Source: Candidatus Omnitrophota bacterium
Lineage (GTDB): Bacteria > Omnitrophota > Gorgyraeia > Zapsychrales > Aceulaceae
Length of the DNA stretch: 64,000 nucleotides
Direction: 5' to 3'
Assembly: GCA_028693815.1 (NCBI GenBank)
Contig: JAQUUP010000003.1
Location: forward strand, 1,850 to 65,849
The notes beneath the pieces are model-generated. The model was not told the origin of the DNA. It ran no database searches and worked only from the letters and a program-made list of their open reading frames with translations. Below, piece by piece: positions 13,934 to 18,067 of the stretch; position 1 is the stretch's first letter; each line of letters begins with the position of its first letter. Position numbers and translations under genes: made by a program.

Positions 13934-13972
13934 AAAAAGGGCAAACCGCAACAAGCGGTTTGCCCTTTTTTT
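13934..13972. terminator. Bidirectional rho-independent terminator
   Basis: Hairpin GGGCAAACCGC-aacaa-GCGGTTTGCCC followed by a T7 run, directly downstream of the EF-G paralog. Confidence 0.7.
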
Positions 13973-13988
13973 ACTGCATTATAACCCC

Positions 13989-15925
13989 TTATTCTTTCTT
14001 GGCCTTTTGACCAACAACTTGCGATACCACTTTTTCTGGAGATTTCTCGTAATGAGAAAACTTCATGCTATAAGTTCCTCGACCTGCAGTGACAGAGCGA
14101 AGATCCGTCGCATATTTAAACATTTCCGAAAGCGGCACATGAGCTTTTAAAATTTGCTTCTTAACTCTAACTTCAGATCCCATAATTCGTCCCCTGCGAG
14201 AACTAAGATCCTTTGTAATCTGACCTAGAAATTCGTCTGGAATAACAATGGAAACTTCCATAATTGGTTCAAGCAAAGCCGGTCCTGCCAATTTAACCGC
14301 TTCTCTCAAAGCCATTGCAGCTGCAATCTGAAATGCCATATCAGATGAATCAACAGCATGAAACGATCCATCCAAAACAGTCACTTGAATATTTTGAATT
14401 GGAAAACCAGCTAAACGCCATCATGAACAGCCTGTCGTACCCCTTTCTCAACAGAAGGAATATAATTTCTCGGAATTGCCCCACCAAAAATCTTATTAAT
14501 AAACTCAAACTCTGCTCCATCTTTTGACAATGGCTTAACTTCAAGCTCAACATCTCCGTACTGTCCACGTCCACCAGATTGTTTCTTATATTTATGGCGA
14601 GCGCGCGCTGTTCTTGAAATAGTTTCTCGATAAGAAACTTTAGGCGTGCCAAGATCTACGTCAACATGATAGCGCATTCTCATTCTTTCCAACATAACTT
14701 TAAGATGAAGATCACCGACACCAGAAACAATAAGTTCGTTTGTATCATTATCTCGATAAGATCGAAACGTATGATCTTCCTCGCACATGCGATGTAAACT
14801 TGCTGAAATCTTCTCTTCATCCGAACGTGTTTTAGGTTTAATCGACGCCGAAATAGATGGCTCAGGAAATTTAATCGGATCAAAAATAATTCTTTCCTTG
14901 TTTTCACACAACGTGTCACACACATGCGTATTTTTAAGTTTTGGCAAAGCAACAATATCGCCACAACTTGCTTCTGTAACACTAATTTGCTCTTTTCCTT
15001 GTAATATACTAATAGAGCCAACCGTTTCTCTTGTGTTTTGATTAACATTAAAGAATGACGAATTTGCTGTCATTTTTCCACTTAAAATGCGGACCAAAGA
15101 CAAATGCCCAAGGTGAGGATCAAACATCGACTTAAAAACATACCCTGTCAAAGGAGCTTGATCTAACGGCTTGATGCGCCTGATTTCTTCAGAATTCTGG
15201 AGATGTGCTTCAAATTCTGGATGCTCAACTGGAGAAGGCAAATATGCAACGATCCCATTTAAAAGGTCTTTAATTCCCGCATCCGTCAAAGCGCTTCCAG
15301 AAAAAATAGGAAAGAATTTTGCCTGCGAAACAGCTTTATGAAGAGCTTGCTTAATTTCATTTTCAGACAAAGTTCCCACCTCTAAATACTTCTCAATCAG
15401 CTCATCATCCGTCTCTGCTACAGACTCAATAAACTGAGGATCATTGTAATCAACAACACCTGCCTTAGATGAAAGCTGCTCTCTGATTGAAGCAATAGTT
15501 TCGTCTATATTAACTTCATTTTTATCTGTTTTATTAATAAAAATAATGCGAGGAATATATCGTTCTTGAAGCCGCTGCCAAACATCCTCAGTTCCAACTT
15601 CAACACCATTGACGGCATCCACGATAACAATAGCTGAATCTACAACTCTTAAGGCAGAAATTGTCTCGCCAATAAAATCAGAATATCCAGGAGTATCTAT
15701 GATTTGAATTTGATAATTATTATATTTTACGGTGAGCATGCTAGCGTTAATCGAGATCTGACGCTCAATCTCATCATCATTAAAATCACTAATCGAGCTT
15801 CCTTTTTGAACATCACCTTTGCGCGTAATTGATCCGCTAACGAACAAAATGCTTTCCGCAAGCGACGTCTTACCGCAATGAGCGTGTCCAACTAATGCAA
15901 TGTCGCGCTTAAATTTGGCTTCCAT
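13989..15925 (-). pseudogene. Elongation factor G paralog (EF-G2-like) split by a -1 frameshift near 14385-14411
   Basis: The 5' ORF carries the GTPase domain (AHCGKTSLAE, DTPGYSDF, NKTD) and domains II-IV, ending ...VEKGVRQAVHDGV*. The 3' ORF (13989-14384) carries domain V. The lost frame continues LAGFPIQNIQVTVLDGSFHAVDSSDMAF, which is contiguous in intact EF-G. Confidence 0.75.
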
Positions 15926-16425: not shown

Positions 16426-16462
16426 CTCCCGCTTTTTATGATTAATAAATTTTTTACCGAAT

Positions 16463-16680
16463 AACAGAAAAGGGGCAACTCTTAACTCACAAGAGTTGCC
16501 CCTCTAAAAATCTTTATTTAGTATTTTATTAACATTCATAACGCAGCCTCCCTTAATTGAAAAGGGCTCAGAACTTTAAAATACTTAATAATTAAAAAGG
16601 GCAGCTCTGTAAAGAGCTGCCCTTAAAATTTCTAAATATTTTTTAAGCGAACATTCATAACCTGGAAGCCTCCTGTCGCT
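16463..16680 (-). promoter_or_regulatory. Two tandem paralogous modules, each RBS + mini-ORF + intrinsic terminator, upstream of the CheD-like gene
   Basis: Module 2 is AGGAGG-N10-ATG (16658..16632: MNVRLKNI*) followed by hairpin GGGCAGCTCT/AGAGCTGCCC and a T-run. Module 1 is GGGAGG-N7-ATG (16539..16504: MNVNKILNKDF*) followed by GGGGCAACTCTT/AAGAGTTGCCCC and a T-run. Confidence 0.5.
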
Positions 16681-16744: not shown

Positions 16745-18067
16745 CTAAATATCTTTCAAATTCAAATTATCTTTAGATGTTTCAATTGCCTGCTCCAAAC
16801 CCTTTAGACAATCCGAAATCTTATTCATTTCTTTCGTTGAAACAACAGGAATACTGTCCACTCCCCTATCATCGATCATCTTTACAACATTCTTTATTGT
16901 ATAAAGTTCAATGTTACGTGCCGGCTGATATCCTGTAGCCCCATCATCTCTTTTAACTTCAGCTAAAACACCAGCCTCTGTTAAATTAAATAAAATTTCA
17001 TTTGTTAAACGTATTGGCGACTCTAAAACATGTGAAATTTCTTCAGCTTTAGGGGCCAAATCTCCTTTATAAAGATGCTTGATGCACAAATGCGTAATAG
17101 CCAACGCCATAAATCTTCTAAAAGATCGGCTAGCTTTTAAACAATCTGGTTCAAATTCATATGTGTCAACATTCTGCTTTGCAAAAGAAACTTCTGCGCC
17201 AAAAAGAACAATGAGCCAACTCACCTGAAGCCATACCAAAAAAAGCGGCAAAGCAGCAAAGCTACCATAAATCGCACCATATTTACTGGCCCCAATTTGA
17301 AAGTTTATATAGGCCCATTGCACAATTTGGTAAACAGTTCCAGCAATAACGCCACCCATTAATGCTGAAGAGAGCTTAACTTTAGTATTTGGCATAAAAA
17401 TATAAATAAAAGTAAACATAACCCAAATCACAACAAACGGCAAAAGCTTAAGAGAGAAAAATATAAACGGTGCAACAGCGCCTAAAATTTCAATTCTTTG
17501 AGTAATCGCCGTAATTTGGCTCGCGACCAAAACTGTTGCACTACTCGACATAATCAAAAGAATCGGGCAAATTAACATAATGGAAAGATAGTCACTGAAC
17601 TTTCGGCTGAACCCTCTTCCTTTTTTAATACCCCAAATATCATTAAAAGATGTTTCAATGTTTCCTAAAACTTTAATGACTGTCCAAAACAAAATAACCA
17701 CACCAATTCCTGCGATGAGCCCACCTCTTGTATTTTCTAAAAACGCATTCGAAAACCCTATGATTTGAGCGACAATTTCTTCTTGCCCAGGCAAGCGATT
17801 ATACAGCTGTGCTTCAAGCATTGATTCAAAACCAAACCCTTTCGCAATTCCGAATGCCATGGCAACAACCGGCACAACGGAAAGCAAAGAATAAAAAGTT
17901 AAGGCTGATGCTCTAAGCTGACATTTATCCTCATTAAATCCGCGCAAAGCTAATAAAACAATTCTCAACTGCTGGATTAAGAAAAATTTTGTTTTTGGGA
18001 GCTTGTTGGCACGAATACGCCAAATATCCGTTTTTAAAAATCGAACAAACTTTGAAATGTTGGCCAT
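16745..18067 (-). CDS. YihY/BrkB family membrane protein with a C-terminal extension
   Basis: The N-terminal ALTFYSLLSVVP and a six-TM core are typical of YihY/BrkB (formerly called RNase BN). About 130 aa of cytoplasmic tail follow. Confidence 0.8.
   Translation of the reverse strand: MANISKFVRFLKTDIWRIRANKLPKTKFFLIQQLRIVLLALRGFNEDKCQLRASALTFYSLLSVVPVVAMAFGIAKGFGFESMLEAQLYNRLPGQEEIVAQIIGFSNAFLENTRGGLIAGIGVVILFWTVIKVLGNIETSFNDIWGIKKGRGFSRKFSDYLSIMLICPILLIMSSSATVLVASQITAITQRIEILGAVAPFIFFSLKLLPFVVIWVMFTFIYIFMPNTKVKLSSALMGGVIAGTVYQIVQWAYINFQIGASKYGAIYGSFAALPLFLVWLQVSWLIVLFGAEVSFAKQNVDTYEFEPDCLKASRSFRRFMALAITHLCIKHLYKGDLAPKAEEISHVLESPIRLTNEILFNLTEAGVLAEVKRDDGATGYQPARNIELYTIKNVVKMIDDRGVDSIPVVSTKEMNKISDCLKGLEQAIETSKDNLNLKDI

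Follow-up and report, generated by a model that had tools for sequence, protein, structure and literature searches.

In a 64,000-nucleotide stretch of DNA from a Candidatus Omnitrophota bacterium (referred to as the window here), two paralogous modules lie on the minus strand between a YihY/BrkB-family gene and a cheD-like gene. With somewhat more confidence than doubt, and on the basis of comparative sequence analysis, we read them as tandem translation-dependent transcription attenuators of the pyrBI/pyrE type, located in the leader of an operon that encodes a CheD-like protein and an EF-G paralog. Given that the design is kept across Omnitrophota, it most likely tunes this operon to the coupling between ribosome and polymerase.

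Layout of the locus

Each module consists of an SD sequence, a mini-ORF whose peptide begins with Met-Asn-Val, and an intrinsic terminator. This pairing, first described in a first-pass annotation of the DNA, was confirmed from the sequence: an exact 12-nt repeat, GTTATGAATGTT, has one copy in each module, with the copies 119 nt apart, and an alignment of module 1 with module 2 has 63 invariant columns out of 126. The features of the locus are the following.

16745-18067: YihY/BrkB-family gene (Pfam Virul_fac_BrkB), flanking the upstream side of the leader
16724-16696, minus strand: sigma-70-type promoter TTGCCA-17-TAAAAT predicted by promoter scan, 5' of module 1
16674-16669, minus strand: SD 1, AGGAGG, with a 10-nt spacer to the ATG of mini-ORF 1
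16658-16632, minus strand: mini-ORF 1, MNVRLKNI-stop (ATG AAT GTT CGC TTA AAA AAT ATT TAG)
16624-16594, minus strand: intrinsic terminator 1, AAGGGCAGCTCT-TTAC-AGAGCTGCCCTT plus T-run, 12-bp stem
16552-16547, minus strand: SD 2, GGGAGG, with a 7-nt spacer to the ATG of mini-ORF 2
16539-16504, minus strand: mini-ORF 2, MNVNKILNKDF-stop, the TAG stop overlapping the stem base of terminator 2
16505-16469, minus strand: intrinsic terminator 2, AGAGGGGCAACTCTT-GTGAGTT-AAGAGTTGCCCCTTT, 14- to 16-bp stem and T-run; its stem arms, GGGGCAACTCTT/AAGAGTTGCCCC, form the ancestral-type hairpin common to relatives with a single module
16419-15967, minus strand: cheD-like gene, 150 amino acids, with its own SD GGGAGG at 16430-16425; first gene of the putatively regulated operon
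15931-13989, minus strand: EF-G paralog, about 646 amino acids; second gene of the operon
13970-13934, minus strand: operon-end terminator with a 16-bp GGGCAAACCGC stem, forming a hairpin on both strands

The stems had initially been described as 10 to 12 bp long, with each stop codon running directly into its hairpin. We measured 12 bp in module 1 and 14 to 16 bp in module 2, and the description of the stop codon holds for module 2 only; in module 1 it does not abut the hairpin, with 7 nt separating it from the extended stem and 9 nt from that stem's GC core. The listed promoter was the one promoter-like site in the 1.1 kb that were scanned, placing the transcription start about 17 nt before SD 1, and the promoter scan predicted no second promoter between the modules and the cheD-like gene. 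A terminator scan of 1.1 kb returned four terminator-like sites, both module hairpins among them, against 0.7 expected from shuffled sequences. Throughout the 64-kb window, only these two of about 20 terminator-like hairpins are accompanied by an SD and a mini-ORF in the geometry of the modules. The two-module leader is not an assembly artifact, since the leader and the cheD-like gene (783 bases) are 100% identical in an independent public assembly.

Two further sites were observed next to these features. Between terminator 2 and the SD of the cheD-like gene, TTAATCATAA (window 16431-16450, minus strand) is invariant in the window and in two related loci (L003 and L004), and its surroundings vary among the three. 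At the other end of the operon (window 13934-13990, minus strand), the stop codon of the EF-G paralog is directly followed by GGGG-N5-ATG CAG TAA and then by the operon-end terminator, whose stem base (GGGCAA/TTGCCC) resembles the leader terminators.

Conservation of the leader across Omnitrophota

For comparison we fetched 46 related loci, all from organisms that are uncultured MAGs. About 30 distinct Omnitrophota loci, with cheD-like genes 41 to 90% identical, carry the promoter, SD, mini-ORF, and terminator upstream of the cheD-like gene. Apart from five distant loci, all those with enough upstream sequence share one layout, namely, the promoter tttcTTGCCAa-17-TAnAAT, an SD, a mini-ORF of 6 to 18 codons, and, as the last part, a strong terminator that in most cases reads (A)AGGGCAACTCTT-loop-AAGAGTTGCCCTTTTT. 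Even next to a different upstream gene, the −35 and −10 boxes keep their position. The five most distant loci (L044 to L048, 26 to 32% identity), in which true cheD genes stand behind cheY-like genes, served as a negative control; the leader is absent upstream of these chemotaxis genes, and a covariance model of the module (R1, built from 35 modules) has no match there.

Two modules were found only in the clade with a cheD-like identity of at least 63% (the window and L003, L004, L005, L006, L007, and L026), and all other loci have a single one, making the duplication specific to this Aceula-like clade. Module 2 of the window represents the ancestral type. In the window, R1 gives 77.5 bits to module 2 and 69.4 bits to module 1, followed by the operon-end terminator with 38 bits; in the related loci it matches the expected site, once or twice, everywhere but in L008, which has a different stem sequence. 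No further copy of the module was strongly matched by R1 elsewhere in the window or the related loci. When the window was compared with L003 and L004, invariance amounted to 69 to 85% for SD, ORF, and terminator and 75% for the cheD-like coding sequence; it was 36% for the spacer between the modules, 43% for the 5' UTR, and 74% for mini-ORF 1.

A few observations stand beside this pattern. In L030 (1240-1290), an extra hairpin with a T-run, following TTGAATGTA and lacking a clear SD, lies between promoter and module; this may represent a second module that has degenerated in a locus not belonging to the Aceula-like clade. The ordinary terminator of an upstream gene in L012 (3104-3195) reaches 31 bits with R1. 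In another Omnitrophota MAG (L066, 3560-3740), an identical hairpin, GGCAACTCTT...AAGAGTTGCC, precedes a PAS-GGDEF-HD-GYP gene and is itself preceded by a promoter-like site and a four-codon ORF (MEIE-stop); other genes of the phylum may be equipped with such leader terminators. Every CheD-like homolog for which a taxonomic label exists stems from an Omnitrophota MAG. Several of the MAGs with this Omnitrophota-specific cassette are labeled “uncultured Planctomycetales” (L002, L004, L006, L008, L013, and L019), which probably reflects a coarse or outdated taxonomy.

Signs that the mini-ORF is translated

Several features of the 36 modules collected from these loci point to translation of the mini-ORF. 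Thirty-five of them have an SD at a distance of 3 to 11 nt from a downstream ATG, TTG, or GTG codon, the start of the remaining one being CTG (in total, ATG 21, TTG 12, GTG 2, and CTG 1), and the G-rich block of SD columns is conserved. Codon 2 is mostly Asn (AAT 17, AAC 6), and codon 3 is Val in 26 modules (GTC 15, GTT 8, GTG 2, GTA 1), with variation in these two codons mainly at third positions. Accordingly distributed is the information content, which for positions 1, 2, and 3 is 1.41, 0.90, and 0.62 bits in codon 2 and 1.00, 1.33, and 0.43 bits in codon 3. No module has a premature in-frame stop (P of about 2e-4 by dinucleotide shuffles of 22 lineage representatives). Across the phylum, the conservation of the peptide is confined to the N-terminal M-N-V, and the length of the ORF and the position of its stop vary. 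The orthologs in the close clade are MNVDLKNI-stop, MNGEIRNI-stop, and MNVDLKNR-stop for mini-ORF 1 and MNVGKILQKDL-stop, MNVGKIGIKDL-stop, and MNVGTLRCKSF-stop for mini-ORF 2. This conservation looks like coding, and we infer that the mini-ORFs are translated.

Loss of the mini-ORFs and their ribosome-binding sites under persisting hairpins had been named in the first-pass annotation as the mark of simple tandem terminators, and the conservation of MNV peptides followed by a terminator in related genomes had been named as a check. Wherever the upstream sequence suffices, we found SD, start codon, open frame, and terminator persisting together, and the codon-like conservation favors a translated leader. 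A sensing of RF1, considered because all stops appeared to be TAG, was rejected, as this applies to the close clade only and TAA and TGA occur elsewhere (the window background is TAA 22, TGA 9, and TAG 7).

Terminator spacing and RNA structure

Across the modules, the terminator stems comprise 9 to 18 bp followed by a T-run. RNAalifold returned the terminator helix only, with compensatory double changes in 7 of 11 pairs and a nearly invariant GGCA/UGCC core; orthologs of terminator 1 are among those with compensatory changes in the stem. Neither RNAalifold nor the folding of RNA lacking the 3' arm revealed a conserved antiterminator; as long as the 3' arm is missing, the 5' arm is paired with upstream sequence in 16 of the 36 modules, but in inconsistent ways, and we rejected this pairing as an antiterminator.

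Start codon and GC core are separated by an almost constant distance of about 33 nt (mostly 31 to 35 nt). The distance from the stop codon to the core spans −15 to +14 nt in 34 of 36 modules, with stops between 14 nt upstream of the core and the inside of the hairpin, and the ORF reads through in the other two. A fixed start-to-core distance with a wandering stop fits the need for a ribosome to reach the hairpin. In about eight modules, including module 1 of the window, the stop lies 9 to 14 nt before the core, which is borderline for cover by a ribosome. In 31 of 36 modules, the 16 nt that precede the stem core include a run of at least three T's, which recalls the U-rich pause region in pyrBI.

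We also searched for relatives of the hairpin itself. At the gathering threshold, an Rfam search of 15 related loci returned tRNAs only. Below it, module 1 matched the L20_leader (RF00558) with 35.7 bits against a gathering score of 58.7; we rejected this assignment, because the genes downstream are not infC-rpmI-rplT and the match is driven by the terminator and AT-rich sequence, the helices specific to the family having noncanonical pairs. The hairpin is unique in the window, which speaks against a genome-wide repeat or regulon marker. Scanning 185,579 genomes for the exact hairpin gave 27 places, five of which are known cheD-like loci; the others, with the L066 site being of note among them, are in unrelated taxa or at other genes, and their model scores are at the level of the hairpin only. 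Pairing of the mini-ORF start with codons 4 to 10 of the cheD-like gene (repeat I2) was rejected as well: codon 6 varies (N, D, E, G, or S) without matching changes in the leader, and AAUGUU is self-complementary when wobble pairs are allowed.

The operon downstream of the leader

The first gene of the operon encodes a protein that has the predicted CheD fold but is probably not a CheD ortholog. It matches the NCBIfam CheD model with an E value of 2e-10 but only 41 bits against a cutoff of 240, and the Pfam CheD model with 16.6 bits against a cutoff of 25. Its AlphaFold2 model (pLDDT 90) has Thermotoga maritima CheD (2f9z_C) as the best fold match (E value of 4e-9, TM score of 0.68), followed by structures of NTAN1, the N-terminal asparagine amidohydrolase. 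Cys30 and His47, aligned with the Cys/His pair of CheD, are unchanged throughout 27 homologs. With regard to the NTAN1 match, it may be a coincidence that the leader peptides have a conserved Asn2. As for its genomic context, the cheD-like gene has an EF-G paralog as its neighbor instead of che genes; true cheD loci are found behind cheY. It had been described as an orphan at first, but in 21 of 21 genome loci the EF-G paralog follows directly, while the flanking genes vary.

The EF-G paralog is closest to canonical EF-G in domains II to V and keeps the domain IV loops SGGRGQYG and HAVDSS, but its G' subdomain is about 48 residues shorter. In switch II, the DTPGH motif of canonical EF-G is changed to DTPGY in all 28 copies, a Tyr thus taking the place of the catalytic His. 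Together, the DTPGY motif and the shortened G' subdomain suggest altered or absent GTP hydrolysis. We rejected an assignment of the paralog to the tetracycline ribosomal protection proteins or to EF-G2, since it scores below the cutoffs of both models. In the window, a 1-nt deletion at a T-run near 14412 (14405-14420, minus strand, GGC GTT T-TA GCT) splits the gene into frames of 515 and 131 amino acids; the gene is intact, with 645 to 646 amino acids, in the relatives as well as in an independently assembled copy of this identical locus, and the split probably stems from an error in sequencing or assembly or else represents a strain variant. A literature search on an EF-G/CheD pairing in Omnitrophota returned nothing relevant.

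Proposed mechanism and alternative explanations

The attenuation that we favor would proceed as follows. Transcription would start at the conserved promoter, and each module would provide a strong SD together with a quickly initiated mini-ORF (ATG/TTG AAY GTN...) that has no stop until it reaches or enters the 5' arm of the highly stable terminator. If no ribosome stood at the end of the mini-ORF when the T-run is transcribed, the hairpin would form, a transcript of roughly 100 nt would be released, and the operon would be off. If the leading ribosome were at or near the stop codon, its footprint, reaching about 10 nt past the stop, would cover the base of the 5' arm, and the blocked hairpin would let the polymerase read on, turning the operon on. 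The leader would thus read the ratio between the speed of translation initiation and early elongation and the speed of transcription. In a series of two modules, the read-through probabilities would multiply, giving a lower basal level and a steeper response. Candidate signals would be a polymerase slowed by low NTP or an altered speed of the ribosome. Blocking of the hairpin by ribosome occupancy and the physiological signal are both inferred, and a feedback loop is plausible because the products of this translation factor operon are ribosome related.

Experimental work on Escherichia coli describes such an effect: a terminator 5 bp after a stop codon was less than 10% efficient, compared with about 90% at 28 bp, and slowed translation raised termination (PMC4824070). 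Similarly, an advancing ribosome suppresses the pyrL/pyrBI attenuator (PMC5021804). The predicted leader has the parts of an occlusion-type attenuator, namely, an ORF with ribosome-binding site and start codon, a terminator between promoter and genes, and close proximity of ORF and hairpin; over similar distances, terminators are repressed in E. coli (PMC4824070). The lack of both an antiterminator and a regulatory codon run indicates that it is not of the trp/his or erm type and fits direct occlusion by the ribosome. The original suggestion of a leader-peptide attenuator or ribosome-stalling peptide is therefore supported in part, namely as a translated regulatory leader, and a sequence-specific arrest peptide is not indicated. 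Some points run counter to occlusion. Where the stop lies 9 to 14 nt before the GC core, a terminating ribosome would reach the stem base only; the conserved Asn-Val is not needed for pure occlusion and may have a more specific role; and the invariant GGCA/UGCC core exceeds what a generic terminator needs. In addition, with ORFs of 6 to 18 codons, a ribosome must load and translate during about 40 nt of polymerase travel, so that pausing is required.

One rival to occlusion is an arrest-peptide attenuator. Here, a nascent M-N-V... peptide would stall the ribosome and alter termination, as in the erm, cat, ABC-F, and hflXr leaders, the trigger being a small molecule, an antibiotic, or a defect of a translation factor. 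The motif is indeed kept at the peptide level while third positions vary, replacements in the close clade are conservative (L/I, K/R, D/E, F/L), and the EF-G paralog with its DTPGY motif makes the downstream operon translation related. However, there is no conserved alternative structure for a stalled ribosome to free, and a stall at codons 2 to 4 falls short of the hairpin about 33 nt downstream, so it would only favor termination. The length of the ORF (6 to 18 codons), its C-terminal sequence, and its stop codon all vary, and the EF-G paralog is not a ribosomal protection protein (277 bits with tet_protect against a cutoff of 775). We therefore regard an arrest peptide as unlikely. The stem core, in turn, could be explained by a protein that binds the hairpin, either an operon product or a ribosomal protein, as in the L20, L10, and TRAP leaders, with the mini-ORF being secondary. 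Such a role is improbable in our view. The core GGCA(A/G)C...G(Y)UGCC is nearly invariant phylum-wide and there is the subthreshold L20_leader match of module 1, but that score is far below the threshold and owed to terminator and AT-rich sequence, the loops vary, the stem of L008 is entirely different, the operon-end terminator has a similar GGGCAA base, and the exact hairpin also occurs at unrelated genes as well as in unrelated taxa.

The remaining two explanations detach the modules from the operon. With promoter, SD, and terminator all strong and the peptides conserved within the clade, the transcript of roughly 100 nt could be a small RNA or the mRNA for trans-acting micropeptides of 8 to 11 residues. 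Against such independent small genes, the element always adjoins the same operon in the same orientation while the flanking genes vary, the window and the loci contain no further copy, a second promoter before the cheD-like gene is not predicted, and the peptides are not conserved across the phylum beyond M-N-V; we give this explanation very little credence. Plain tandem terminators shielding the operon from its upstream neighbor, with mini-ORFs arising by chance in AT-rich DNA, are already disfavored and appear to us highly improbable. Since the YihY gene, whose stop is at 16745, has no terminator of its own ahead of module 1, terminator 1 also puts an end to transcription arriving from upstream, but SD, start codon, and open frame are conserved (P of about 2e-4, as given above), the other terminators of the window lack an SD with a mini-ORF, and the conserved promoter upstream of the terminators means that they interrupt the operon's own transcript.

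Implications of the proposed ribosome-occlusion attenuation

If the favored reading of the modules as ribosome-occlusion attenuators is true, they constitute a minimal ribosome-dependent attenuator that does without an alternative helix, its parts being an SD, roughly ten codons, and a terminator; this attenuator would be maintained across an uncultured phylum and tandem-duplicated in one clade. Attenuation that senses coupling has so far been described mainly for enterobacterial pyr genes; it would then also exist outside of them, for a translation factor operon. The operon itself holds an uncharacterized pair, found in these searches in Omnitrophota only, of an amidase with the CheD/NTAN1 fold and an EF-G copy with the His-to-Tyr change, and its regulation suggests a function connected with the speed of translation or the supply of nucleotides. 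R1 could serve as the seed of a new RNA family. A more far-reaching idea, which we consider rather improbable, is that the leader acts as a sensor of the first elongation cycles (fMet-Asn-Val), wired by feedback to the products of the operon, the EF-G paralog with its His-to-Tyr change and a CheD/NTAN1-like amidase that alters ribosomal translocation. In its boldest form, the amidase would act on Asn2 of the leader peptide, or on Gln/Asn of the EF-G paralog or of the ribosome. In this way, the operon would gauge what it does to translation and correct it.

Comparison with known systems

The tandem design and the downstream genes each have a counterpart elsewhere. As in the Salmonella mgtCBR leader, whose two short ORFs sense different signals through alternative stem-loops (PMC3641672), and as in tandem riboswitches, two termination checkpoints follow each other in cis within one leader, and as in mgtCBR each of them is tied to a short ORF; unlike in mgtCBR, the modules here are paralogous copies of a single minimal design. 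Like EF-G2 of Bacteroides, Thermus, and Mycobacterium, the EF-G paralog is a second EF-G with an altered G domain, encoded outside the str operon, but it differs in the invariant His-to-Tyr change, the G' subdomain shorter by about 48 residues, the constant CheD-like partner, and scores below the EF-G2 model cutoffs.

Among attenuators that depend on translation, those of the trp/his/leu type rely on features absent from the modules, which contain neither codon runs nor a conserved alternative helix. We also compared antibiotic-responsive leader-peptide attenuators, i.e., those of ermC/ermB, cat, vmlR and bmrCD of Bacillus subtilis, lmo0919 and hflXr of Listeria, and tet(M) of Tn916. In them, as in our modules, a ribosome-related factor is preceded by a short ORF that has an SD and leads into a terminator. 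However, the drug leaders combine an alternative antiterminator or SD-freeing structure with drug-dependent stalling at defined codons, and the modules have no such conserved structure; M-N-V alone is conserved and ORF length varies, setting them apart from the erm/cat/ABC-F/tet(M) type.

The closest likeness is to pyrBI (pyrL) and pyrE (rph-pyrE) of E. coli. In both cases an ORF, which for the modules is predicted to be translated, extends up to or through an intrinsic terminator, with a U-rich stretch ahead of the hairpin; no antiterminator helix is needed, as the leading ribosome sterically blocks the hairpin, and read-through reports the coupling of translation and transcription, a working mode that the modules would share. 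The putative Omnitrophota attenuators differ in that their ORFs have 6 to 18 codons, versus 44 for pyrL and a whole gene for rph, in the conserved Asn-Val codons 2 and 3, and in the tandem modules of one clade. They would regulate a CheD-like amidase and an EF-G paralog rather than pyrimidine genes, and NTP-sensitive pausing is only hinted at by the T-run in 31 of 36 modules. As judged from the sequence comparison, what appears to be new relative to the pyrBI/pyrE attenuators is thus their size, their M-N-V start, the regulated genes, the phylum, and the tandem duplication.
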